From a virus (taxonomy: Duplodnaviria > Heunggongvirae > Uroviricota > Caudoviricetes): a stretch of DNA of 10,904 nt. Below, one piece after another: positions 1 to 10,904 of the stretch. The stretch is taken from positions 1 to 10,904 of IMG/VR virus record IMGVR_UViG_2660238215_000014; one strand, 5' to 3'. Below the pieces are notes generated by a model. The model saw only the letters and a list, made by a program, of their open reading frames with translations, ran no database searches and was not told where the DNA came from. The translations under genes were made by a program, and so were the position numbers. Within the stretch, counting starts at the first letter, position 1. Each line of letters begins with the position of its first letter.

Positions 1-78
1 CCACCAGTATAAGTTATTGATATATAGAAAAATAAAAATTTTTAGTGTCGAATCTGGTTGTTTTTTGTTCATCACTGG
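1..78. repeat. Copy A of a 78-bp imperfect direct repeat (copy B at 8446-8523; 72/78 identical), located 30-108 bp upstream of the terS start
   Basis: Base-by-base alignment of 1-78 with 8446-8523 gives 6 mismatches (positions 7, 14, 26, 29, 30, 55 of the repeat); longest exact blocks are 24 and 23 bp. Contains the 10-bp palindrome AAAAATTTTT (34-43) and TGTTCAtC (66-73), one mismatch from the origin octamer. The window starts inside or at the edge of this repeat, so its leftward extent is unknown. Confidence 0.85.
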
Positions 79-108: not shown

Positions 109-585
109 ATGGATCGTGAATTAAAAAATCTGCATCTGAATATTTCCCAACTGGCCGCATTATCCGGTGCTCATCGACAGACTGTTGCGGCTCGGGTAAA
201 AAACATAAGCCCAGCCGGTGGTCATGAGAGCAATCTCAAACTGTACCGACTGACAGATATCCTTGCCGAGCTGATGAAAGCTCCTCTGCCTGTAGATAAC
301 GAGGAAATGGATCCTCATGCGCGTAAAGCATGGTACCAGTCAGAACGTGACCGACTGAAATTTGAGCAGGAAACTGGTCAGCTTGTGCCAGTCAGTGATG
401 TCAGGCGGTCCTTTTCTGTCGTGGTGAAAGCGATAGTTCAGGTACTGGAAACCTGGCCTGACCGGCTGGAGAGGGACAGGGGGTGGACCGCATCACAACT
501 GAATGAAGTACAGATTGTGGTTGATGAGATCCGCGACACACTGGAAAAGGCAGTCATTGACTGTTGTGATGAGGCCGATATGTGA
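109..585 (+). CDS. terS: Phage terminase small subunit (Nu1-like, N-terminal helix-turn-helix DNA-binding domain)
   Basis: 158-aa ORF with good RBS; N-terminal motif LNISQLAALSGAHRQTVAARV resembles the winged-HTH of small terminases; its stop overlaps the start of the gpA-type large terminase ORF (GTGA at 582-585), the classic terS-terL coupling. Confidence 0.65.
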   Translation: MDRELKNLHLNISQLAALSGAHRQTVAARVKNISPAGGHESNLKLYRLTDILAELMKAPLPVDNEEMDPHARKAWYQSERDRLKFEQETGQLVPVSDVRRSFSVVVKAIVQVLETWPDRLERDRGWTASQLNEVQIVVDEIRDTLEKAVIDCCDEADM

Positions 586-1589
586 ATCAGGTGAACGAGA
601 GCCATAGCCGCGCATCCGATATCTGGCGCGAAGTGGCCTCGCTGTTTCGCCCACCCAGCCGGTTACCAGTAGCGGAAGCCATCAGGCGTTATATGCGGGT
701 TCCACGGGGAGCCAATACTTCCGGTCCGTGGGAGTCATCGCTGACGCCCTATATGATTGACCCCATTAATACATTATCAGCCCGTGAATATGACGCGGTG
801 GTGTTTGTGGGACCTGCGCGAACCGGGAAAACCGAAGGGCTGATTGATGGCTGGATTGTGTACGGCATCATCTGTGATCCGGCGGATATGCTGGTGGTGC
901 AGATGACTGAGACGAAGGCGCGTGAGCATTCCAGAACGCGTCTTTCCAGGACGTTTCGCCACAGTCCGGAGGTCAGCAAGCGCCTCAGTCCTTCCCGTAA
1001 TGACAACAACGTCCACGATAAAATGTTTCTTGACGGCTCCTTCCTGAAGATTGGCTGGCCGTCGATCACCGTCTTTTCCTCTTCGGATTACCGTCGTGTG
1101 GCGCTGACGGATTATGACCGTTTCCCTGAAAACGTGGACGGGGAAGGGGATGCCTTCACGCTGGCCTCAAAGCGTACCACCACCTTTATGTCCTCGGGGA
1201 TGACCCTGGTCGAGAGTTCACCGGGGCGGGATATCACCGATACCAAATGGCGTTGTGGTGGCGCACATGAGGCACCGCCAACAACGGGGATCCTGTCACT
1301 GTATAACCGGGGAGACCGCCGCCGGTGGTACTGGCCGTGTCCGCACTGCGGGGAATATTTTCAGCCGGTGATGGATAACATGACCGGATACCGGAATAAC
1401 CCGGATTTTGTGGCTGCCGGTCAGGCTGCCCGTCTGATGTGTCCGCATTGTCGCGGGCTGATTGCCCCTGAGCAGAAACGCGAACTGAATAACCAGGGGA
1501 TCTGGCTTCGTGAAGGTGAACGGGCGGCGGCGGACGGCAGTATCACCGGAACGCCACGAAACTCCCGGATTGCGTCATTTTGGATGTAG
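582..1589 (+). pseudogene. terL: Large terminase, lambda gpA family, N-terminal fragment only (335 aa versus about 640 aa expected)
   Basis: Walker A GPARTGKT; paired CxxC motifs (CPHCGEYF ... CPHCRGL) as in lambda gpA from memory; gpA-like similarity continues to the last residues (GIWLREG ... ASFWM), then a TAG stop at 1587-1589 coincides with a sharp shift to AT-rich non-coding DNA. No continuation in any frame. Confidence 0.8.
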
Positions 1590-1750
1590 GGTACATTTCT
1601 TACCTGTTTGTATGTTCTGGTGTCGATTCATAGTCTTTTCAATGAGTTGTGATTTTATGAGTTTCCTCTCTTTGCTTGATAATGAGTTAGTTTATCGCTT
1701 GTTATTGGCTTGAATGGACTACATGACGGACTAAAAAATGAGGGCGATAG

Positions 1751-2989
1751 ATGTCGGTAAAGCCATTAACCGTGACTGAAGTTAAGGGGATGAAACCACG
1801 TGAAAAGGACTATGCCGTTTATGATGGGTTCGGTTTATTGCTGAATGTGAGTAAAGCCGGTGGGAAAGTGTGGCGTTTCCGTTATAGCCATCCGATAACG
1901 AAGAAACGGCAGACATACACGATAGGACGTTTTCCTGAATTCTCACTCGCGGAAGCACGGGAAGTACGTGATGAACTTCGGCGAATGATTGCACGTGGAG
2001 TTGATCCAGTGACGGAGAAGAAAAATCGTAAAATTGAGATGTCACTAAAAAATCTACAGACATTTGAAGCTGTTGCTAATGCATGGTTCGCTTTTAAAAA
2101 GGGATCTGAATTGCGGAAACCTACGCTGTATAATATCGAATATGAAGTATACAAATATCTTGTTCCTTTCTTTGGTAAGTACAGTATAGAAAAAATTACA
2201 GCACCAGTAGCTATTAATGCTCTGGATGCCGTATCCGATAAGAATGCGTTGCAAAAAAAATTAATATCAAGATTAAATGAAATTATGAATTATGCTGTAA
2301 ATTGTGGAGCATTGAAAGCAAATCCATTACTTAAGATAAAGACTGCATTCACAGGAAAGAAAAATAAATCATTAGCAGCACTACCTGTTGAAAGATTGCC
2401 TGAATTTCTGAGCTGGTGGGATAGTGTGCCTCATACCTATCAAATAGCTCATAATGCACTTTTATTCCAGATATTGACAATGGTTAGGCCAGGTGAGGCG
2501 ATTAAAGCAGAGTGGTCAGAGATTGATTTTGATTCTGGCTTGTGGATTATCCCCGCGCATAAAATGAAATGCCATCGTGAACATGTTGTTCCCTTGTCAT
2601 CACAGGCTATTAGTATCCTCAGAACAATGCAGGAAATAAAAAGAGGGCGTTATGTGTTTTTTTCCTCCAGAACAAAAGATGCGCCTATGGGGAGGAATAC
2701 TATCAAGACCCCAATTGCTGCCAGCAAGTTCAAAGGGATTGTAACGTTACATGGTTTTCGTTCAATGTGGAGTACGCTTTTAAATGAGGAGGGATTTAAC
2801 CCCGATGTAATCGAGGCTGCATTGGCGCATAAAAGTGGTGATAAAATAAGAGATATTTATAATAGAACTATTTATCTAGAACAGCGTAAGATCATGATGC
2901 AATGGGTCGGTGATTTTTTTGATGATGCGAGAAAAGGGGTAATTAATAGATCCGGTGGTATGAAAGGTTTAAGAGTAGTAAATGGTTGA
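1751..2989 (+). CDS. int: Tyrosine site-specific integrase, P4-like family (N-terminal arm-binding domain plus catalytic domain)
   Basis: 412 aa; N-terminus GLLLNVSKAGGKVWRFRYSHP...GRFPEFSLAEAREVRDEL matches the P4-type integrase arm-binding domain; C-terminal catalytic signature R (MVRPGEA), HGFRSMWST, LAHKSGDKIRDIYNRTIY with terminal Tyr. RBS GAGGG 6 nt upstream. Gene is markedly more AT-rich than its neighbours. Confidence 0.9.
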   Translation: MSVKPLTVTEVKGMKPREKDYAVYDGFGLLLNVSKAGGKVWRFRYSHPITKKRQTYTIGRFPEFSLAEAREVRDELRRMIARGVDPVTEKKNRKIEMSLKNLQTFEAVANAWFAFKKGSELRKPTLYNIEYEVYKYLVPFFGKYSIEKITAPVAINALDAVSDKNALQKKLISRLNEIMNYAVNCGALKANPLLKIKTAFTGKKNKSLAALPVERLPEFLSWWDSVPHTYQIAHNALLFQILTMVRPGEAIKAEWSEIDFDSGLWIIPAHKMKCHREHVVPLSSQAISILRTMQEIKRGRYVFFSSRTKDAPMGRNTIKTPIAASKFKGIVTLHGFRSMWSTLLNEEGFNPDVIEAALAHKSGDKIRDIYNRTIYLEQRKIMMQWVGDFFDDARKGVINRSGGMKGLRVVNG

Positions 2990-3002
2990 GGAGGTTCAGC
3001 AA

Positions 3003-3206
3003 ATGAATACCAATGAAGATATTTTATTTACTAAAGACGTAATGAAAATCTTGCGATATGGAGCAATGAGTGCATTCATCAATTTCTGGAAAGATGAGAA
3101 TAATGGTTTTCCTCAGCCGTTCAGAATTGGACGACGACATACCTGGCACCGTAGAGATGTAGAAGCATGGTTAGATAAACAACGAGAACAGGCCAATCCC
3201 CACTAA
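3003..3206 (+). CDS. alpA: AlpA/Vis-like small HTH transcriptional regulator or excisionase
   Basis: The track ORF starts at 2982, but a strong SD GAGGAGG (2988-2994) sits 8 nt before the in-frame ATG at 3003, giving 67 aa. Motif FPQPFRIGRRHTWHRRDVEAWL fits the AlpA family (FP-P-ilG-r---W---dV--Wl). Immediately downstream of int in the same orientation, as in P4 (vis) and Gram-negative PICIs. Confidence 0.75.
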   Translation: MNTNEDILFTKDVMKILRYGAMSAFINFWKDENNGFPQPFRIGRRHTWHRRDVEAWLDKQREQANPH

Positions 3207-3220
3207 TAATATCTTTCATA

Positions 3221-3245
3221 CCCCGCGTGCAATGCGGGGTTTTTT
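3221..3245 (+). terminator. Rho-independent terminator after int-alpA
   Basis: Stem CCCCGC (3221-3226), loop GTGCAAT, stem GCGGGG (3234-3239), followed by TTTTTT (3240-3245). Confidence 0.7.
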
Positions 3246-3265
3246 GTATGTGAGGTAAAAAAGAA

Positions 3266-3847
3266 ATGAATAAAAATATTGCCGTGACGGGCAAGGGTGA
3301 CGCACGTCATGTAAAAAAATTCTGTGATATTCGTGATCTGGTCGTTCTGCGCTTTGATAGTGTGAACGTTCGCGTGGTGTATCTGAACGGCGATCCGTGG
3401 TTTGTTGCAAAGGATGTTTGTGTTGCTCTGGAAATAAGTAACTCACGCGATGCTCTAAAAGCACTAGATGCGGATGAAAAGAAAACCGTCGCTTTAAGCT
3501 ACGGTATTCGAGGAAATCCAAATCATAGCCTCATTTCTGAATCCGGTTTTTACAAGCTGATCGCCAGAAGTCGGAAAGCTGTTACTCCTGGCACGTTCGC
3601 CCATCGTTTCAGTAACTGGGTATTCAGGAATGTGATACCGGGTATCAGAAAAACGGGGGCTTATGGTATCCCGTGGGGTGTAGTACAGGATTTTTCCCGC
3701 CGCAAAGAGCAATACCAGATAAGTGCCAGCGAGAAGGGGAGGGCGCTACAGGCATGTAAGCGCAAAAAACGTGAACTGGAGGAAGAAGAAAAAAGGCTGA
3801 TACGTGAATATCAGCCTGAGTTTTACTTTGGCAACCGCATTCAGTGA
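3266..3847 (+). CDS. Bro-N domain protein (antirepressor-like N-terminal domain, short coiled-coil-like C-terminus, no obvious KilA-C domain)
   Basis: 193 aa; hallmark Bro-N motifs VRVVYLNGDPWFVAKDVCVALEI ... SGFYKLIARSRKAVTPGTFAHRFSNWVFRNVIPGIRKTGAYG; SD GAGG 10 nt upstream of ATG 3266; C-terminal 50 aa rich in K/R/E. Confidence 0.8.
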   Translation: MNKNIAVTGKGDARHVKKFCDIRDLVVLRFDSVNVRVVYLNGDPWFVAKDVCVALEISNSRDALKALDADEKKTVALSYGIRGNPNHSLISESGFYKLIARSRKAVTPGTFAHRFSNWVFRNVIPGIRKTGAYGIPWGVVQDFSRRKEQYQISASEKGRALQACKRKKRELEEEEKRLIREYQPEFYFGNRIQ

Positions 3848-3970: not shown

Positions 3971-4153
3971 TCAGCCTTTTGGTTCTATGCCTTCTTTGCG
4001 TAGCTTGTCACGACAGGCATTTTTAACCCATGAACTGAAATTACCAGGCCCAGCAACTTCGTTAATTTGTTGCAACAATGTGTCTTCGAAGCGGATGTTT
4101 TTCTTTGTGCTGCCGGAGCGATCAAATTTTGGTTTCTCATTTTTTTCTTGCAT
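3971..4153 (-). CDS. Small ribbon-helix-helix (Arc/CopG-like) DNA-binding protein; candidate repressor of the element
   Basis: 60 aa; segment KKNIRFEDTLLQQINEVAGPGNFSSWVKNACRDKL has the beta-strand / helix / G-x-S / helix pattern of RHH proteins. It is the only convincing minus-strand gene, divergent from the rightward operon, with palindromic operators at its 5' side and a hairpin terminator at its 3' side. Confidence 0.5.
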   Translation of the reverse strand: MQEKNEKPKFDRSGSTKKNIRFEDTLLQQINEVAGPGNFSSWVKNACRDKLRKEGIEPKG

Positions 4154-4198: not shown

Positions 4199-4298
4199 TG
4201 TTGAAGATACGCAACCATTAAATACAGCGAAGCCCCGCAGTGGTGGAACACTCGCAGGGCTTCTAACCACCAACGATAGCAAGATTATCGAGGTAGCT

Positions 4299-4490
4299 AT
4301 GTTAAATCATACCACACACCCGCAAGGGCGGGACTTGCACAACCTGAATAAATTCACCTGGCGTTTTATCGCCCTGAGCACGGCACAACCGCGCGTGATT
4401 ACCATTGAGGCCACCAGCGAACAGGAAGCACGCCAGCAATCTCCTGATGGCTGCGTGATGGTATTCGCTGCCCGTATTCGTCAGGGGTAA
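4299..4490 (+). CDS. Small hypothetical protein (63 aa), first gene of the rightward operon; function unknown
   Basis: ATG 4299 preceded by GAGG (4289-4292); corresponds to the C-terminal in-frame part of track ORF 3804-4490, whose upstream part looks non-coding. I have a vague, unverifiable recollection of Icd-like annotations on similar small proteins. Confidence 0.45.
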   Translation: MLNHTTHPQGRDLHNLNKFTWRFIALSTAQPRVITIEATSEQEARQQSPDGCVMVFAARIRQG

Positions 4491-4493
4491 GTC

Positions 4494-4859
4494 ATGCATA
4501 ACCTGTCAATTTCTGACCTTAACTGCATTCAGTTTGACGAGAAATTTACCGGGCAGCTACTGGTCCATGTGGAGAACGGGCGCATAGTGCGTAATTACCA
4601 CCTGCCGGATGGTGCAATTGCCGGAAGCGTTGAAGCATTGCTGGAACTGGCAGAACGTGCGCGACTGATTAAGCCGTTAACGAACCATCACGATGATGAT
4701 CTGCATTTTACCGGACGCATGGTGAGTCACTACGAAAACGGCGTCGAGGTATCCCGCGAACGGCTGCGTGATGATTGCTGTTTCGGCACACTGCCGGAAT
4801 TTATCGAGTTGCTGACCAGTTGCGGTTATCAGGTCATTCAGGGGGGTAAACATGCGTGA
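4494..4859 (+). CDS. Hypothetical protein (121 aa) made of two tandem copies of a roughly 50-aa domain (FTG-x-LV-x3-ENG ... L-x-ELL)
   Basis: SD AGGGG 7 nt upstream. Internal duplication visible in the translation: FTGQLLVHVENGRIVRNYHLPDGAIAGSVEALLELAERA versus FTGRMVSHYENGVEVSRERLRDDCCFGTLPEFIELLTSC. Confidence 0.6.
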   Translation: MHNLSISDLNCIQFDEKFTGQLLVHVENGRIVRNYHLPDGAIAGSVEALLELAERARLIKPLTNHHDDDLHFTGRMVSHYENGVEVSRERLRDDCCFGTLPEFIELLTSCGYQVIQGGKHA

Positions 4860-5085
4860 TGATCGTTTTAATTCCCTGAAACGGGAATTTGATGGCGCAC
4901 AGGAAGATGCAGCGGGCGCATTGTTGAGCGTTGCTGACATGATGAAAGCTGCATATTTTCTTATCAATACCAGTGGCTACAAGTCAGAGGGTGAAATGAT
5001 TCTTAGTATTGCGTCGGACTATGCGGAATATGTGGCAGAGACGCGTTACAGAAGAAAATTCACGGAGGATGTAAGCCATGCATAA
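4852..5085 (+). CDS. Hypothetical protein (77 aa)
   Basis: ATG overlaps the end of the previous gene by 8 nt; SD GGGGGG upstream; acidic, helical-looking sequence, no recognisable motif. Confidence 0.5.
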   Translation: MRDDRFNSLKREFDGAQEDAAGALLSVADMMKAAYFLINTSGYKSEGEMILSIASDYAEYVAETRYRRKFTEDVSHA

Positions 5086-5279
5086 TCATGAAGCGCATGT
5101 ACCCGTAGTGCTTAATGTGCCAGATGATTTCACCGGACGCGTACTGGTTTACCTGGATAAAGGGAAAGTGAAATCACAATGCCGACTGAAAAGTAATGAG
5201 ATTGTTGGTTCTCCTGAATTTTTTTTCTGAACTTTGTATTCGTGCGGAAATAAAACCGGAACTGCTGACAGGAAAATAA
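5078..5279 (+). pseudogene. Third copy of the FTG domain (paralog of 4494-4859), interrupted by a frameshift at a T8 homopolymer (5219-5226)
   Basis: ATG 5078 overlaps the previous stop (ATGCATAA). Frame 1 gives MHNHEAHVPVVLNVPDDFTGRVLVYLDKGKVKSQCRLKSNEIVGSPEFFF* (stop 5228-5230); the +1 frame continues SELCIRAEIKPELLTGK* (stop 5277-5279), which aligns with the ELAERARLIKPL part of the paralog. Not in the ORF track because each piece is under 60 aa. Confidence 0.5.
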
Positions 5280-5283
5280 AACC

Positions 5284-5574
5284 ATGAAAAAGAAAAATTC
5301 TGGCTTTACTGCCAGCGGCCTCTCTCGGCCTGAAATCCGCCCCGGTGATATTTTCCGGGACACCAGACGCGGTGGACGGGTGGTTATTCGTCACGTTACG
5401 CCAGGCAATATCACCTACCGCCGTGAGGCTTACGAATATGACTGCGTAATGCCGCGCCGTCAGTTTGATCGTGATTTTATTCTGGTGGAAAACAAACAAC
5501 AGGCAGTGGCGAGACGTGCAGCCACGAATATTAAAAAAATCCGGGCAATGTTGGTTGCGGGAGGTAAGAAGTGA
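5284..5574 (+). CDS. Hypothetical basic protein (96 aa), immediately upstream of and coupled to pri-rep
   Basis: ATG 5284 after AAAACC; stop overlaps the GTG start of the primase gene (GTGA 5571-5574); K/R-rich, no recognisable motif. Confidence 0.5.
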   Translation: MKKKNSGFTASGLSRPEIRPGDIFRDTRRGGRVVIRHVTPGNITYRREAYEYDCVMPRRQFDRDFILVENKQQAVARRAATNIKKIRAMLVAGGKK

Positions 5575-7370
5575 AAAACGCACCGAGTCTAAAATATCAG
5601 CTGAAGGATAAATTCACTGAGGTAATCATTTTTGCCGGGACGGATGCTTACGCCCATGCTCAACACTGGATTGAAAGTGAAGGACGAAAACACGGCGATA
5701 ACGTGCCTCCTGTTTACCTGGGGCCAAAGCAACTGGCAGACCTGGCGAATATCCGCATTATTGACGAGAAACGCCGTTTTGCGCGTGTCTATATCGCGGG
5801 GGAGATAGAGCCAATCCAGATCAATACTATCGCTGAAAAGCTGGCGCTGGCTGGCGTACAGGAGGCGAAATTATACAAAGGTATCACCGACCAGGAACCG
5901 GAGAACTGGCGCGACTACCTGCAACGGATCCGCGAACAGGCTGAGCACGGGGAAGTTTCAGTGATGAAATTAGCTACAAAAAATAGTGGTCTACCCAAGC
6001 CTGCATTAAATCAGATGGGAGCCAGCCAGAGAGGGGAAGTGTTACTTGAACATTATGGAGGAGCACTGGCGATTCATGCTGACTCTGACACTGTTCACCA
6101 TTACAACGGCGTTGTATGGGAGCCAGTACAGGATAAAGAATTACAGCGAGCTATGGCACAGATTTTCATTGATGCGGAGATCAGCTATTCGCAGAACGCC
6201 ATTAAATCGGCGGTAGATACCATGAAGTTAAGTTTGCCTGTAATGGGGAATACAGCCCGTAACCTGATTGGATTCAGTAACGGTGTTTTTGATACCCGGA
6301 CAGGCGATTTTCGGGAGCATAACAAAAACGACTGGTTGTTAATTGCCAGTGAATTACCTTTCAGCCCACCAGCAGAGGGGGAAACGCTGGCAACACATGC
6401 GCCGAATTTCTGGAAGTGGTTACGCCGTTCGGTGGCTGAGAATGACCGCAAGGCGGATCGCGTACTGGCTGCATTATTCATGGTGCTGGCGAACCGGTAC
6501 GACTGGCAGTTATTCATTGAGGTAACAGGTCCAGGGGGAAGTGGTAAAAGCGTGATGGCGGAGATTTGCACCATGCTGGCGGGTAAGGCCAACACGGTAT
6601 CGGCAAGCATGAAGGCGCTGGAAGATGCCAGGGAACGCGCGTTAGTGGTTGGCTTTTCGCTGATTATCATGCCGGATATGACCCGCTACGCTGGTGATGG
6701 GGCAGGGATTAAGGCTATTACAGGCGGTGACAAGGTGGCAATTGACCCGAAACACAAAGCCCCCTACTCAACGCGTATTCCGGCAGTAGTGCTGGCGGTT
6801 AACAATAACGCCATGTCATTCAGTGACCGCAGCGGGGGGATCTCACGTCGTCGGGTGATATTCAATTTTTCGGAAGTTGTACAGGAGAACGAACGCGATC
6901 CAATGCTGGCGGAAAAAATAGAAGGTGAGCTGGCGGTAGTGATTCGCCATCTGCTTACACGGTTTGCTGACCAGGACGAAGCCAGACGCCTGTTATATGA
7001 GCAGCAGAAATCTGAAGAAGCACTGGCGATAAAGCGAGAGGGGGATTCGCTGGTGGACTTCTGCGGCTATCTCATGGCGTCGGTAATGTGTGATGGCCTG
7101 TTAGTGGGTAATGCTGAAATTGTACCATTCAGCCCACGCAGGTATCTCTATCATGCCTATCTGGCTTATATGCGGGCACATGGGTTTGGTAAACCTGTAA
7201 CACTGACTCGCTTCGGTAAAGATATGCCGGGGGCAATGGCGGAATATGGCAGGGAGTATATGAAACGGAAAACGAAGCACGGTTTGCGTTCAAACGTGAC
7301 ACTGATGGAGGAATCAGAAGACTGGATGCCATCATGTGTATCGGTCACTAATGACGATAGCAAAAATTAA
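5571..7370 (+). CDS. Replication initiator primase/helicase (pri-rep; P4 alpha-like / D5-type SF3 helicase with P-loop)
   Basis: 599 aa, GTG start with SD GGAGGT (5560-5565); Walker A GPGGSGKS near residue 310 with downstream hydrophobic strand and acidic motif (LIIMPDMT); N-terminal region resembles a primase/Toprim-like domain; cognate iteron origin lies immediately 3' of the gene. Confidence 0.8.
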   Translation: MKNAPSLKYQLKDKFTEVIIFAGTDAYAHAQHWIESEGRKHGDNVPPVYLGPKQLADLANIRIIDEKRRFARVYIAGEIEPIQINTIAEKLALAGVQEAKLYKGITDQEPENWRDYLQRIREQAEHGEVSVMKLATKNSGLPKPALNQMGASQRGEVLLEHYGGALAIHADSDTVHHYNGVVWEPVQDKELQRAMAQIFIDAEISYSQNAIKSAVDTMKLSLPVMGNTARNLIGFSNGVFDTRTGDFREHNKNDWLLIASELPFSPPAEGETLATHAPNFWKWLRRSVAENDRKADRVLAALFMVLANRYDWQLFIEVTGPGGSGKSVMAEICTMLAGKANTVSASMKALEDARERALVVGFSLIIMPDMTRYAGDGAGIKAITGGDKVAIDPKHKAPYSTRIPAVVLAVNNNAMSFSDRSGGISRRRVIFNFSEVVQENERDPMLAEKIEGELAVVIRHLLTRFADQDEARRLLYEQQKSEEALAIKREGDSLVDFCGYLMASVMCDGLLVGNAEIVPFSPRRYLYHAYLAYMRAHGFGKPVTLTRFGKDMPGAMAEYGREYMKRKTKHGLRSNVTLMEESEDWMPSCVSVTNDDSKN

Positions 7371-7657: not shown

Positions 7658-7903
7658 ATGACAGCGAAGCACACAAAAAAATCACAATCGCACGCCCTTG
7701 ATTTGACGGAACACTGGTTAAGGGTGTCGATAAAAATCATCGACCGCAACGCCGGGGAAGGATATGCGAAAGCACATCCCGAACTAATAATCGCATTCAT
7801 GACCACGGCGGCGGCAAACTTTGCCACGCTGACGGAACGGGAGATTGCCGAAGCGGAACAGGTAACAACCATCAACGTTAAAACCGGAGAGGTGGAATCA
7901 TGA
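7658..7903 (+). CDS. Hypothetical protein (81 aa)
   Basis: ORF downstream of the origin; its stop overlaps the SSB-like start (ATGA 7900-7903), suggesting an operon; no recognisable motif. Confidence 0.4.
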   Translation: MTAKHTKKSQSHALDLTEHWLRVSIKIIDRNAGEGYAKAHPELIIAFMTTAAANFATLTEREIAEAEQVTTINVKTGEVES

Positions 7904-8323
7904 CAGCACAGATAGCCGCTTACGGGCGGCTGGTGGACGACCCGCAGGTAAAACAGACCAGCAAGGGCACACCGATGACGCTGGCGCGTATGGCGGTCCC
8001 CCCTTCCGTGCAGCCAGGCAGATGACGGAACGGCGACGATGTGGTTATCCGTCCTGGCATTTGGCAGACAGGCCGAAGCACTGGAAAGGCACCGCAAGGG
8101 TGAACTCCTGAGCGTGGCGGGTAACATGCAGATCAGCCAGTGGACTGGGCAGAACGGAGAAACGCGGCAGGGCTGGCAGGTTATCGCAGACAGTGTAATC
8201 AGTGCGCGAACGGCGCGACTGGGCGGCAAAAAAGGTCAACAAGGCCAGGCTACTGACGCGCTGAACAGGGCAAAACAACAGGCGGGGAATGATGATCCGT
8301 ACGGGGATAACATACCGTTTTAA
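7900..8323 (+). pseudogene. ssb: Single-stranded DNA-binding (SSB)-like gene split by a frameshift at a C6 run (7998-8003)
   Basis: Frame 1 from ATG 7900: MTAQIAAYGRLVDDPQVKQTSKGTPMTLARMAV..., resembling the SSB N-terminus ([27 protein letters not shown]), stop at 8023-8025. Frame 2 open from 7979 through track ORF 8039-8323: ...WLSVLAFGRQAEALERHRKGELLSVAGNMQISQWTGQNGETRQGWQVIADSV ... DNIPF, resembling the SSB OB-fold core and IPF tail. Confidence 0.6.
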
Positions 8324-8361: not shown

Positions 8362-8445
8362 ACGGGTCCTCCTGGCGGGGTGGGCCTGAACACGGGGCGA
8401 CGGGCGCGGAAAAAGGCGCATTTTTTGATTTTTATGGCACCATCA

Positions 8446-8523
8446 CCACCACTATAAGCTATTGATATATTGAGGAATAAAAATTTTTAGTGTCGAATCA
8501 GGTTGTTTTTTGTTCATCACTGG
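8446..8523. repeat. Copy B of the 78-bp imperfect direct repeat (copy A at 1-78)
   Basis: See copy A. Weaker homology continues about 25 bp further (TTTACA ... CAGG) with an indel. In copy B the -10-like element of copy A is replaced (CAAAAA in place of CATAAT). Confidence 0.85.
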
Positions 8524-8790
8524 AACGTTCCCGAAAACATTTACAAAAAAACAGGCGCAAAAAAAAGCGCCCCCGATTGCTGTTACCGGAGGCGCTTTTA
8601 CACGACAAAGGAGTTTTTATCGCCAGGATGACGAGTCTTAATATTGCTTCAATGGCAAAAATGCGTCAATGGCTTTGCCTCTCTGAGAATAATCAGAAAA
8701 AACATAATCTGATTTTCAGGTAGAAAATGATTTATCTATTGCTTTTATCGATCAATAATGATGCCCGTTAATCAAAACGGAGGCGGATTT

Positions 8791-8985
8791 ATGCCAGAGA
8801 ACAACACCAGAAAGCCGGATAAAAGTGCCACGGTACACATAGACGCCGGAACTATGGAGAAGATCGAACGCTATCAGCAGTTCATCAAAGATAATCACCC
8901 GGGTATGCCGGTACCCACGAAAGGACAAATCACACGCAGCGCGGTTGAATACTGGTACCAGGCAACGTTAGGAGCCTGGCTATGA
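8791..8985 (+). CDS. Small hypothetical protein (65 aa from ATG 8791; track start 8758), possibly RHH-like, translationally coupled to the protease-capsid gene
   Basis: Strong SD GGAGG (8779-8783) 7 nt before ATG 8791; stop overlaps the capsid ORF start (ATGA 8982-8985); pattern ATVHIDAGTMEKIERYQQFIK ... TKGQITRSAVEYWYQA is compatible with a beta-strand / helix / helix fold. Confidence 0.45.
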   Translation: MPENNTRKPDKSATVHIDAGTMEKIERYQQFIKDNHPGMPVPTKGQITRSAVEYWYQATLGAWL

Positions 8986-10871
8986 AAACATGGTTTTCCA
9001 TTAAGGCTATGGCAGATGTTGTCTATGTGCGTATTTATGACGAGATCGGCGGGTACGGTGTAAAAGCATCGACACTTACTGACGAGATCAACGCGTGCGG
9101 TAATGCGTCTGAAATCCATCTTCGCATCCATTCACCTGGTGGCGACATCTTTGAAGGGCTGGCTATCTATAACGCCCTGAAAAATCATCCGGCAAAGAAA
9201 ATTGTACACATTGAAGGCATGGCGGCTTCTATGGCCTCGTTTATTGCCATGTGTGGCGATCACATCGTTATGCCTGAAAACGCGATGATGATGATACATG
9301 CCCCCCGTGGTGTTACTGCCGGAGTGTCGGGCGACGTTCGCCGCTTTGCTGACCTGATGGACAAGCTGGGCGACACGATGGCGGAAACCTACGCCGGAAG
9401 AACGGGCAGGAGCAAACAGGAGATCACCTCAATGATGGAGGCGGAAACCTGGATGGATGGCAATGAGTGTAAGGCTAACGGCTTCGCAGATGAGGTTATA
9501 CCCGCGATTACAGCAATGGCCCGAATTGAATCAAAACGAATCGGAGATTTTTCAAATATGCCGGAAAAAATTAAAAGCATGATCAGCCAGAAAACTGGCA
9601 GTGGCGAACAGGAACGACTTAACGGAATCCGTGAATTGTTTGGCACCTTCAACGGAAGATATAACGACCTGGCTATAAGTTGTCTTGCGGATTCAGAATG
9701 TAGCGTTGAGAATGCACGCGAACGCCTTTTACTCGCTATGGGTAAAGAATCAACGCCAACAAACAAAACCACCCCCGCAAATCTTTACTACGCGTACACG
9801 GATAACGGCAATATAACCGGCGATGCCATGCGTCAGGGGCTTAATGCGCGTCTTGGTCACGAACGGGCCGAACGCGGTAATCCTTACGCCATGATGAGCC
9901 TTTTCGATATGGCACAGGCATCATTAACCCATCGTGGTATAAGCACGGGCAGCTACAGCACACGCTCGCAGATAGTAAACGCGGCATTCACCCACAGCAG
10001 CAGCGATTTTACCGATATCCTTGCTGGTGGCGCTGAAAAATCAGTGCTTGCAGGCTGGGAGCACAGCGGCGAAACATTCCGCCAGTGGACGAAAAAAGGT
10101 TCCCTTTCAAACTTCCGGGAAGCCCGCCGCGTTGGTATGAATGGCTTCTCAACGTTAAACAAAGTGCCGGAAGGGGCAGAATATAAATACATCACCACCA
10201 GCGATCGCGGTGAACCCATCGCGCTGGCTACTTACGGGAATATTTTCAGTATTACCCGCCAGGCGATAATCAATGATGACCTTGATCAGTTATCAACGGT
10301 GCCAATGGCTATGGGCCGTGCAGCATCAAGAACGGTGGGAAATCTGGTTAATCTGGTGCTTACAGGCAACGTAAAACTTTCTGACGGAATAACGCTGTTT
10401 GACAAAAAACACAGCAACCTGATTGAAACAGGACTGACAACACCGGGACTTAGTGCAGCACGTCACCTGATGCGCACACAGAAGGACAAAAATGGCGAAG
10501 TGCTGAATATTGCGCCTAAATTCCTTTTAGTTCCGGCAGCACTGGAAGATCGCGCGTTGCAGATGATTAACTCAACCGCACCTTTCGGGGCTGATAAAAA
10601 CAGCGGGATCTTTAACCCGTATCACAAGCTACTTGATATCATCGTCGATCCCCGCCTTGATGATATCAGCGAAAAACAATGGTACATGCTTTCCGCACAG
10701 GGAACGGACACAATCGAGGTGGCTTATCTTGATGGCAATGACGAGCCTTACCTTGAACAGCAGGAAGGTTTTATCGTTGACGGCGTGGCCTGGAAAGTCC
10801 GTATTGATGCAGGTGTGGCAGCTCTGGATTATCGCGGTATGGTCAAATCAGGCGGGACAGATTCACTATGA
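8982..10871 (+). CDS. Prohead serine protease (ClpP/S14-like) fused to an HK97-fold major capsid protein
   Basis: 629 aa; N-terminal region has ClpP-like signatures (HSPGGDIFEGLAIYNAL, catalytic Ser context GMAASMASF, His context MMMIHAP); the C-terminal 350 aa or so resemble phage major capsid proteins; followed directly by a strong terminator, typical of a highly expressed capsid gene. Confidence 0.8.
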   Translation: MKTWFSIKAMADVVYVRIYDEIGGYGVKASTLTDEINACGNASEIHLRIHSPGGDIFEGLAIYNALKNHPAKKIVHIEGMAASMASFIAMCGDHIVMPENAMMMIHAPRGVTAGVSGDVRRFADLMDKLGDTMAETYAGRTGRSKQEITSMMEAETWMDGNECKANGFADEVIPAITAMARIESKRIGDFSNMPEKIKSMISQKTGSGEQERLNGIRELFGTFNGRYNDLAISCLADSECSVENARERLLLAMGKESTPTNKTTPANLYYAYTDNGNITGDAMRQGLNARLGHERAERGNPYAMMSLFDMAQASLTHRGISTGSYSTRSQIVNAAFTHSSSDFTDILAGGAEKSVLAGWEHSGETFRQWTKKGSLSNFREARRVGMNGFSTLNKVPEGAEYKYITTSDRGEPIALATYGNIFSITRQAIINDDLDQLSTVPMAMGRAASRTVGNLVNLVLTGNVKLSDGITLFDKKHSNLIETGLTTPGLSAARHLMRTQKDKNGEVLNIAPKFLLVPAALEDRALQMINSTAPFGADKNSGIFNPYHKLLDIIVDPRLDDISEKQWYMLSAQGTDTIEVAYLDGNDEPYLEQQEGFIVDGVAWKVRIDAGVAALDYRGMVKSGGTDSL

Positions 10872-10877
10872 CAACAA

Positions 10878-10899
10878 GGCGGCACCAGCCGCCTTTTTT
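10878..10899 (+). terminator. Rho-independent terminator after the capsid gene
   Basis: Stem GGCGGC (10878-10883), loop ACCA, stem GCCGCC (10888-10893), then TTTTTT (10894-10899). Confidence 0.75.
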
Positions 10900-10904
10900 G
10901 CGGG

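Follow-up and report, generated by a model that had tools for sequence, protein, structure and literature searches.

A PICI-type satellite embedded, most likely reversibly, in the large terminase gene of its lambdoid helper prophage

Integrated elements can interrupt a gene that is rebuilt by their precise, timed excision, as is the case for skin and SPbeta in Bacillus subtilis and for phi10403S within comK in Listeria. Phage satellites differ in where they integrate, and P4, whose helper is P2 and which remodels capsids through Sid and Psu, integrates at a tRNA-Leu gene. Helper-embedded PICIs (HE-PICIs) were described by Tommasini, Mageeney and Williams (NAR Genom Bioinform 2023; PMC10111431), with Eco567.11capE of E. 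coli NRG857c (hereafter 11capE) as the founder, for which precise excision after composite replication was measured. Their survey used a 400-bit cutoff to the 11capE integrase (Int), and helper embedding was ascribed to a single clade of integrases, marked by an arm motif unique to it. The same work discussed regulated gene integrity and phage regulatory switches, and left open whether lifestyle or integrase lineage drives the tropism for late genes (PMC10111431).

Here we describe an element that qualifies as a helper-embedded PICI by the description of Tommasini et al. (2023), with a different integrase and a new target site. The window, meaning the whole stretch of 10,904 nt that was analysed, comes from a Caudoviricetes record of IMG/VR. 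We have high confidence that window positions 1500-1760 represent the attL of a ~10.2-kb PICI-type satellite situated in codon 335/336 of the large terminase gene (terL) of a lambdoid helper prophage, inserted by the satellite's own tyrosine integrase within a reversible, helper-embedded circuit. Loci used for comparison carry L numbers, and the features of the window are as follows:

1..78, + strand: helper prophage cos region, 3′ part (the window begins inside the repeat, its position 1 being L003 position 1020)
109..585, + strand: helper small terminase subunit (terS), DUF1441 family (Pfam DUF1441, E=2e-49; PHROG 141 'terminase small subunit', E=6e-69)
582..1589, + strand: helper large terminase 5′ fragment, residues 1-335, with the TerS-binding N-terminus and the complete ATPase domain (Pfam GpA_ATPase 45-308)
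1580..1591, + strand: attL core identity block, TTGGATGTAGGG (attL/attR comparison in loci L001, L003, L012, L013, L096 and L097)
1592..1750, + strand: satellite P′ arm, with the doubled 12-bp-spaced motif GGACTAcatgacGGACTA at 1716-1733 and TTTATCGCTT at 1691-1700
1751..2989, + strand: P4-type tyrosine integrase (int), 412 aa (Pfam Arm-DNA-bind_3, Phage_int_M, Phage_integrase, each passing its cutoff)
3003..3206, + strand: AlpA/Vis-like excisionase/regulator, 67 aa (PHROG 66 'excisionase and transcriptional regulator', E=9e-7; weak Pfam HTH_17)
3220..3249, + strand: first intrinsic-terminator-like hairpin downstream of the terL fragment (9-bp stem, then T-run)
3266..3847, + strand: Bro-N antirepressor-like protein (Pfam Bro-N, E=9e-19; PHROG 2593 'anti-repressor', E=1e-84)
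3971..4153, - strand: YlcI/YnfO (DUF3950) small protein (homologous gene annotated in relatives)
4299..4490, + strand: Icd-like cell-division inhibitor homologue (coordinates inferred from the L001 alignment)
5284..5574, + strand: DUF4222 protein, upstream of the primase gene (Pfam DUF4222, E=4e-19)
5571..7370, + strand: replication protein, D5_N / DUF5906 / Pox_D5 primase-helicase
7900..8323, + strand: ssb with a +1 frameshift in a C-run (aligned to the intact ssb of L001 and L012)
8362..8525, + strand: satellite cos copy 1 (matches 167 nt of the helper cos region, upstream of terS, at 93% identity)
8982..10871, + strand: ClpP-protease / major capsid fusion, 629 aa (Pfam CLP_protease, Phage_capsid_4)
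10895..10904, + strand: satellite cos copy 2, start only (runs past the window end)

The terL fragment is a 335-aa ORF that starts with GTG, ends with TAG at 1587-1589 and spans the GpA_ATPase model entirely (Pfam positions 2-247 of 247, E=6e-82); taken alone it holds the ATPase domain only, without the nuclease domain. It equals intact terL alleles base for base up to 1591, and similarity to uninterrupted terL stops exactly there (with window 1290-2050 as the query, genomes with intact terL align over 1-302). GC content drops from 0.585 (1401-1600) to 0.39 (1601-1800), and int begins at 1751, 161 nt past the stop, so that the abrupt junction with AT-rich non-coding DNA was correctly placed in the original prediction. 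The missing 3′ half, put at roughly 300 aa in the original prediction, which proposed a search for it downstream of the element, was indeed located there, 10,198 bp on and ~870 bp past the window end in an assembly identical to the window, and encodes 372 aa. In the rebuilt TerL of 707 aa, GpA_ATPase covers residues 45-308 and GpA_nuclease residues 330-648, placing the break at residue 335/336 on the boundary between the two domains, and not mid-domain as had been predicted. Only the rebuilt gene has both domains in one polypeptide of ~640-710 aa, as is characteristic of the gpA (lambda A-like) family.

Two other explanations for the split can be weighed at this point. The first is a draft misjoin or sequencing error behind the stop or the junction; the window is an entire draft contig with both ends in repeat, which would be compatible with an artefact, but 74 complete E. 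coli genomes and 35 IMG/VR contigs share the identical junction, as does an independent assembly that matches the window at 100% identity, and we regard such an error as extremely improbable. The second, also entertained in the original prediction, is a decayed prophage remnant, with the 3′ half of terL deleted and an unrelated integrative element next to the scar. Although no 3′ half is visible within the window alone, in every longer locus it is present, intact and directly after the element, and an isogenic empty site exists (below). Because nothing has been deleted and both terL halves are intact, this reading can be rejected with near certainty in favor of insertion into terL.

The empty site is seen in related strains lacking the element. 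In the Stx1a prophage of O157:H7, the site is empty in EDL933 and occupied in ECP19-198, an isogenic pair whose flanks show 99.99% identity across 12.3 kb and 11.0 kb, and whose alignment blocks overlap by exactly the 12-nt core, leaving an insert of 10,418 bp in ECP19-198. Over 600 nt, the rebuilt site matches the intact terL of VT1-Sakai, CP-1639 and Stx2a phages at 100% identity. At ≥80% coverage, the empty site was found in 495 E. coli genomes, and the terL-int junction in 74 genomes versus 83 for int itself. In the published study of the O157 Sakai prophages, terminases are intact in all lambdoid Sps except Sp4 (IS in nu1), and Sakai is therefore without this insertion. Insertions have occurred repeatedly and independently: 35 of 36 IMG/VR junctions come after codons R-I-A-S-F, in at least seven distinct terL alleles, with the one remaining copy off-target. 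In Salmonella the insertion falls at the same terL codon, with TerL 64-73% and Int 76% identical. The element was also found in O111, O103, O121 and O145 STEC (host-prophage type is given for O157:H7 only). Many of the host prophages are defective, which counts against an active circuit. A 44-bp terL length difference in O111 strains (L002) was considered as an excision scar and discarded, as it does not lie at the att site.

The borders of the element are resolved to the base, and its insertion inside a prophage terL, the first of the original prediction's two alternatives, is upheld. A 12-bp direct repeat, TTGGATG[T/G]AGGG, flanks the element. The base 5′ of TGGATG covaries between attL and attR (T/T or C/C, six loci), while the T of the TAG is found in attL only and is absent from attR; judged from these alignments, the strand-exchange overlap is likely the 7 bp YTGGATG (1580-1586). 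The TAG stop directly follows Met335 and is derived from the element, into which no terL-like sequence continues. Removing the element in silico restores an uninterrupted terL ORF of 707 aa in four loci, with a predicted attB junction of ...CATTTTGGATGGAGGGGCC... and a predicted attP junction of ...CTTCTTCTTGGATGTAGGGTACA... As in HE-PICIs, attP carries no replacement sequence, and the late gene thus stays split until excision.

The integrase sets the element apart from published HE-PICIs. Its identity to the P4 integrase is 33% (202 bits) and to the 11capE integrase 25% (86 bits), the latter far from the ≥400 bits that operationally define the HE-PICI clade, and 30 of 30 sampled relatives score ≤92 bits to 11capE Int. 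A doubled GGACTA arm motif lies at +132/+144 from the attP centre, with the 12-bp spacing and geometry of the annotated P4 arm repeats; it occurs once in the window versus 0.01 expected. Most clade relatives have a single copy per locus, upstream of int, and none of 80 tRNA-type relatives has it. The motif at 1691-1700 is repeated in the P arm at -102. By contrast, the doubled TGTATTGC motif published for HE-PICIs (~81 bp before and 132 bp after the attP centre) was absent from the rebuilt attP of four loci at ≤1 mismatch, while it was seen in 11capE as a positive control. The target differs as well, lying at the start of GpA_nuclease in a gpA-family terminase, whereas the HE-PICI terminase sites in the accessible part of PMC10111431 are of the Terminase_1 family; that part of its text and supplements has no site name containing 'GpA'.

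Relatives of the integrase (P4/CP4-57-like, down to ~41-45% identity to the window's Int, most with GGACTA-N6-GRACYA upstream of int) were found in Escherichia, Salmonella, Raoultella, Enterobacter, Pantoea, Providencia and Yersinia. All 11 sampled clade members are located within the late regions of prophages and read in the direction of the late genes, and six of the 11 adjoin demonstrably truncated or split late genes. The late genes concerned include those for the terminase (gpA terL), the portal (two families), the major capsid protein, a protease-capsid fusion, and tail and baseplate, plus one from the head-tail region, while a sister lineage and more distant relatives use chromosomal and tRNA sites. 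Among GTDB species representatives no relative exceeded 40% identity; an isolated lineage, as suggested by that scan, was ruled out by the larger protein database. Given that the satellite backbone is common to published HE-PICIs, embedding would have arisen at least twice on unrelated integrases, and we think it fairly probable that this is a second late-gene-targeting integrase clade with such a separate origin. At least two origins on unrelated integrases would in turn argue that selection by the satellite lifestyle, and not a quirk of one integrase lineage, accounts for the late-gene tropism.

Could the element instead be an ordinary P4-like satellite of a P2-type helper, a user of tRNA sites that landed in terL by accident? 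Its integrase is closer to that of P4 than to that of 11capE, distant relatives (≤40% identical) mostly sit beside tRNA genes (55 of 80), and the likeness to P4 extends to the tandem 12-bp arm repeats that flank the attP core on either side and to Icd-like and D5-type primase genes. However, terL is the site in nearly all IMG/VR junctions and in most complete genomes with int, Salmonella included, and the cos copies match the lambdoid helper. The backbone is PICI-like and the element has its own capsid gene. A tRNA scan found no tRNA genes in the window, an Rfam scan at E≤0.1 gave no hits, neither to a P4-type C4/isrK immunity RNA nor to the P4 CI/C4 RNA, and no sid, psu or delta homologues were among the window's Pfam and PHROG results. 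An accidental P4-like insertion is accordingly very unlikely, and a PICI-type satellite of this lambdoid helper remains the preferred reading.

The gene order is int, excisionase, Bro-N, DUF4222, primase, ssb, cos and protease-capsid fusion, which follows the zone order of HE-PICIs (int/alpA, then Bro, then replication with DUF4222, primase and ssb, then late with capsid). The primase is 85% identical to that of 11capE, and synteny matches. Like HE-PICIs, the element has a helper-like cos, brings along a homologue of a helper head gene (with 52% identity between its fusion protein and that of the helper), and makes occasional off-target copies. It differs from capsid-forming PICIs (cf-PICIs), which encode their own terS, terL, portal, protease, capsid and connectors, in that its lineage has the protease-capsid fusion only; some variants of the element carry an extra DUF1441 terS-like gene. 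The int-alpA-primase backbone, the helper-like cos and, as predicted for this element, the dependence on a lambdoid terminase are shared with Gram-negative cos-type PICIs such as EcCICFT073 (Fillol-Salom et al. 2018, 2019; PMC10111431), which, unlike the element, use chromosomal integration sites and interact with the helper in trans only. Regarding smaller features, the excisionase gene has an alternative longer reading from 2982; L001 19344-19535 is annotated 'host cell division inhibitor Icd-like' in a region aligned to window 4252-5639; and a PDB sequence search with three small satellite proteins gave no Rpp-like or other match.

The helper cos segment that is copied in the satellite corresponds to L003 931-1097. 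Satellite cos copy 2, cut by the window end, continues for 69 nt in L003, with 98.6% identity to the helper cos. The two satellite copies are 2.5 kb apart, which counts against the model set out below and could complicate packaging.

The int, excisionase, primase and capsid genes all lie on the + strand, co-oriented with terS and terL of the helper late operon. No terminator-like site was found on the + strand between 1352 and 3220, the first being 3′ of the excisionase gene (promoter and terminator scans were simple consensus matches). One possible circuit would begin with induction, upon which transcripts of the helper late operon would extend past terS and the terL stub to reach int and the excisionase gene. 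The satellite would then excise, presumably late, and terL would be rebuilt. The restored helper terminase could package both genomes, that of the satellite via the cos copies taken from the helper, and the satellite's protease-capsid protein may form heads, perhaps remodelling the capsid. Packaging of helper DNA would be blocked until the satellite excises. The original prediction had the element disabling a potential helper or competitor; the terL of the satellite's own helper is indeed interrupted, but the interruption is most likely reversible, and a permanent knockout unlikely.

The knockout reading deserves consideration nonetheless. A site-specific insertion could have become a dead end, with a copy unable to excise and terL permanently off, as a step in prophage domestication. 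Consistent with this, ssb is frameshifted both in the window and in L003, and the window's satellite copy may thus be partly decayed; an IS1203 copy interrupts the helper's capsid gene in the Stx1a prophage of O157; and many HE-PICI helpers appear truncated (Tommasini et al., PMC10111431). In addition, an exact-pattern search of IMG/VR and JGI metagenome contigs found no excised attP junction, while a control pattern for the element-side core matched 36 prophage contigs in IMG/VR, all of the integrated form. Among 50,697 phage records the element is absent, the sole match being a 78%-identical primase segment in one induced-prophage record. Against a dead end, the int (412 aa), excisionase, primase and capsid genes are intact, as are both terL halves, and the rebuilt site is identical to functional alleles. 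Several terL alleles and one off-target site in the chromosome also hold a near-identical element, a distribution that argues for recent mobility. Altogether we consider a permanent dead end unlikely, though less so than the other alternatives, and favor a reversible interruption.

The switch would differ from those of skin, SPbeta and phi10403S, as here one mobile element interrupts a gene of another, the helper phage, and restoring that gene would serve the satellite and not the cell. Since the satellite interrupts the very enzyme needed to package it, its own excision would become a checkpoint for helper packaging. With the same lifestyle on an unrelated integrase and at an unlisted site, and with relatives that target many late genes, helper embedding probably has a wider scope and more convergent origins than has been reported. 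Annotation pipelines and satellite finders will mis-score such loci as a 'defective prophage with a terminase pseudogene'. In some O157:H7 strains (ECP19-198) the interrupted helper is a Stx1a-converting prophage, and O157:H7 strains that are otherwise near-identical differ in whether the site is occupied; packaging and spread of the toxin phage should depend on terL being split or restored.

The truncated terminase gene described by the original prediction is real, and every coordinate given for it is correct, from the ORF end at 1589 to the int start at 1751. The terL-stub ORF (582-1589, 335 aa) covers the whole GpA_ATPase model of Pfam (E=6e-82), and GC content drops from 0.585 to 0.39 at the junction. 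The window is the whole 10,904-bp contig of draft assembly GCA_001440615.1; L003, a 28-kb contig from another assembly, contains all 10,904 bases at 100% identity and continues past both ends. In L003 and in L001, the complete genome of E. coli O111:H8 8E, int is followed by genes for an excisionase-like protein, a Bro-N antirepressor, YlcI and Icd-like proteins, DUF4222, a D5-type primase, ssb, a ClpP-protease/major-capsid fusion and a small gene. The missing 3′ part of terL, which was to be sought downstream of the element, was found at this point, annotated as ‘terminase gpA endonuclease subunit, missing N-terminus’, and past it lie a portal gene, the prophage's own protease-capsid fusion and tail genes.

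Features of the terL stub, att sites and cos segments (window coordinates unless stated)
1-78: helper cos segment; the contig starts inside this repeat
109-585: DUF1441 small-terminase gene, just before the terL-stub ORF
1580-1591: attL, TTGGATGTAGGG
1587-1589: TAG stop of the terL stub
1751 (start): tyrosine integrase, 412 aa, P4-type arm domain
3220-3249, + strand: first terminator-like site after the terL stub, 9-bp stem and T-run, just 3′ of the excisionase gene
8362-8525: satellite cos copy 1, 93% over 167 nt to helper cos
10895-10904, continuing at L003 11914-11982: satellite cos copy 2, 98.6% over 69 nt (L003)
10,198 bp downstream of attL: attR, TTGGATGGAGGG

A 12-bp identity block flanks both terL parts, and removing the element in silico yields an uninterrupted 707-aa terL ORF at four independent loci. 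In the rebuilt protein GpA_ATPase spans residues 45-308 and GpA_nuclease 330-648, and therefore the 335/336 break lies at the domain boundary (approximately position 6 of the GpA_nuclease profile) rather than mid-domain as had been proposed; the missing part is 372 aa, not roughly 300. Over 600 nt, the rebuilt site matches the intact terL of phage VT1-Sakai, CP-1639 and Stx2a-converting phages at 100% identity, and 495 of 5,426 complete E. coli genomes contain it at ≥80% coverage. In several O111 strains, including FWSEC0005 (O111:NM; L002 796-2963), the annotation of an uninterrupted terL records a frameshift and an internal stop; the L002 gene is 44 bp longer than the query inside the 600-nt test segment, at a place away from the att site.

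Occupied and empty forms were compared in the Stx1a prophage of O157:H7, where terL is intact in EDL933 and the same prophage in ECP19-198 carries a 10,418-bp insert. Both prophages share an IS1203 insertion in the helper capsid gene. On the two sides of the insertion site they align over 12.3 kb and 11.0 kb at 99.99% identity, and the overlap between these alignment blocks is exactly the 12-nt core. Given the flanking 12-bp block, the clean 707-aa rebuild, the identical empty sites and this isogenic pair, the sequence comparisons establish the window junction as a precise site-specific insertion. The proposal that an integrative element had landed inside a prophage terL is borne out by the rebuild and the isogenic pair. 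The alternative offered with it, that the break marks a deletion or a decayed prophage remnant, is contradicted by the same two results together with the empty site, and an assembly error as the cause of the break is ruled out by the identical junction in L003, in 74 complete genomes and in 35 IMG/VR contigs. In both O157:H7 prophages the IS1203 copy splits the helper protease/capsid fusion gene (L095 15117-18409 in EDL933; L096 33244-36535 in ECP19-198), and the ECP19-198 satellite has an intact homologue of that gene, 52% identical.

The base before TGGATG covaries between the two ends: one lineage has T at attL and attR alike, another has C at each. The T of the TAG stop is found in attL only, in 34 of 36 IMG/VR junctions. 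These observations are consistent with a 7-bp strand-exchange overlap, YTGGATG, with TAG supplied by attP. GAG takes the place of TAG in a minority of attL junctions (L001 16581-16594 and IMG/VR contigs L140 and L145), and in these copies the terL stub extends approximately 24 further codons into the element.

Among complete E. coli genomes, 90 carry the integrase gene (83 of them at ≥80% coverage) and 74 have the terL-int junction at ≥80% coverage; carriers include O157:H7, O111:H8, O103:H2, O121:H19, O145:H28 and O22:H8 as well as non-STEC strains. Strains KSC64 and B1-56 have int genes 92-95% identical at the same codon of different lambdoid prophages whose TerL is only ~70% identical to the window's, and in Salmonella enterica an integrase 76% identical to the window's occupies the same codon in a terL 64-73% identical. 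The element-side core is preceded by R-I-A-S-F codons in 35 of 36 IMG/VR contigs, and these codons come in at least seven synonymous or allelic versions. One IMG/VR copy (L117 1-2566), with an integrase differing from the window's by two residues, is not in terL but at CACTTTTTGGATG, adjoining a chromosomal gene for a LysR-family regulator; this site has only the overlap sequence in common with the terL site, an apparent off-target integration.

The element has the gene order of Gram-negative PICIs, its protease-capsid fusion protein shares 52% identity with that of the helper, and the helper cos region, the segment just upstream of terS, is present twice inside it. From this evidence we infer a satellite of the prophage that it splits. 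Both window ends fall in this repeat, the left one inside the helper cos and the right one at cos copy 2, and this accounts for the draft contig breaking there. The two satellite cos copies flank its capsid gene, 2.5 kb apart, each preceded by a terminator-like hairpin. In non-STEC E. coli, satellite variants have a DUF1441 terS-like gene of their own immediately inside the right end (L012 23142-23627; L013 22674-23159), while the window's lineage is without one. The satellite ssb (7900-8323) has a +1-base insertion in a C-run near 7995-8005 that leaves 41-aa and 94-aa ORFs; the frameshift is also in the independent assembly L003, and L001, L012 and L096 have an intact ssb of 140 aa.

This architecture matches the helper-embedded PICI (HE-PICI) model, whose founder 11capE sits in a lambda E-like capsid gene; precise composite excision, composite replication and then satellite excision were measured for 11capE after induction (Tommasini, Mageeney and Williams 2023; PMC10111431). 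Here the split gene encodes the packaging enzyme instead. On the + strand no terminator-like site was found between the terL stub and int, and helper late transcription from terS might run through the stub into int and the excisionase gene. Satellite excision would follow, terL would be rebuilt, and the helper terminase would package DNA with the shared cos. Since the packaging enzyme itself is interrupted, the satellite would have to leave before either partner can be packaged. Public viral and metagenome contigs yielded no attP junction, and the element is absent from all phage records searched.

The backbones of the element and 11capE are closely related, with the same synteny and a primase 85% identical, whereas the integration modules are unrelated (Int 25% identical, 86 bits; the published HE-PICI survey used an integrase cutoff of 400 bits; PMC10111431). 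P4 Int is closer (33%, 202 bits). The int-excisionase module (1600-3100) is AT-rich, with GC of 0.32-0.48 against ~0.45-0.60 in the replication and capsid modules, which fits a module swapped in onto this backbone. A doubled arm motif, TGTATTGC, that is reported as peculiar to HE-PICIs (PMC10111431) is absent from the rebuilt attP of the element and was readily found upstream of 11capE int as a positive control. A different doubled motif, GGACTAcatgacGGACTA, with 12-bp spacing, lies at 1716-1733 (+132/+144 from the crossover centre), the geometry of HE-PICIs and of the annotated tandem arm repeats of P4. Sakai prophage Sp7 of O157:H7, a spontaneously excising lambdoid/P4-like chimera with a P4-like Int, Vis-like Xis and fragmented alpha-like primase (PMC2669165), might from this description be a stranded relative of such satellites.

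Integrase relatives in Enterobacterales form a graded series from 87% down to ~41% identity in a large protein database. We sampled the genomic context of 11, and every one is in the late region of a prophage and points the same way as the late genes; most have an AlpA/HTH gene and then DUF4222/primase genes 3′ of int. Split and truncated late genes were confirmed by PHROGs profiles.

Sites of integrase relatives in prophage late regions
P0004 (Salmonella): gpA terL site
L099: split head-tail region gene, PHROG 1072 positions 6-131 / 130-173
L103: split protease-capsid fusion, PHROG 617 positions 9-393 / 386-624
L102: 3′ of a 153-aa major-capsid fragment
L106: truncated portal, Phage_portal_3 family
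L108 (Yersinia): 3′ of a Phage_portal_2 portal gene, slight overlap
L107 (Providencia): truncated tail protein
L105: truncated baseplate-wedge gene
L104: directly 3′ of a terS gene (Terminase_2)
L101: directly 3′ of a complete protease-like gene (PHROG 1961)

The single member examined of a sister lineage (P0081, Pectobacterium) is at a chromosomal locus, and more distant relatives (≤40% identity) are tRNA-adjacent in 55 of 80 cases and terL-adjacent in none of the 80. The late-gene group is coherent in a neighbour-joining tree, and its members all score ≤92 bits to 11capE Int. Most late-gene loci have a single copy of GGACTA-N6-GRACYA, a short way upstream of int; the motif is absent from the 80 tRNA-type loci, 11capE, P4 and the sister locus. 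A second integrase clade with prophage late-gene tropism, independent of the published one, is thus probable rather than assured, given a small sample (11 loci), a simple neighbour-joining tree and positions mapped by eye.

The element belongs to the recently described helper-embedded satellites, and departs from their published definition in two features, its integrase clade and its arm motif. Its terminase-gene site is a new one: it is outside the 14 published HE-PICI sites, of which the terminase sites are of the Terminase_1 family (PMC10111431). The string ‘GpA’ does not occur in the text of that paper or the supplements examined, including the complete att-site alignment files, and no further paper describing helper-embedded satellites was found in the literature searched. 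The authors of the 2023 paper expected more such elements (PMC10111431). What makes this one worth following is its probably independent integrase clade, the packaging enzyme itself as the target, and its presence in the O157:H7 Stx1a prophage, with an occupied/empty polymorphism there.
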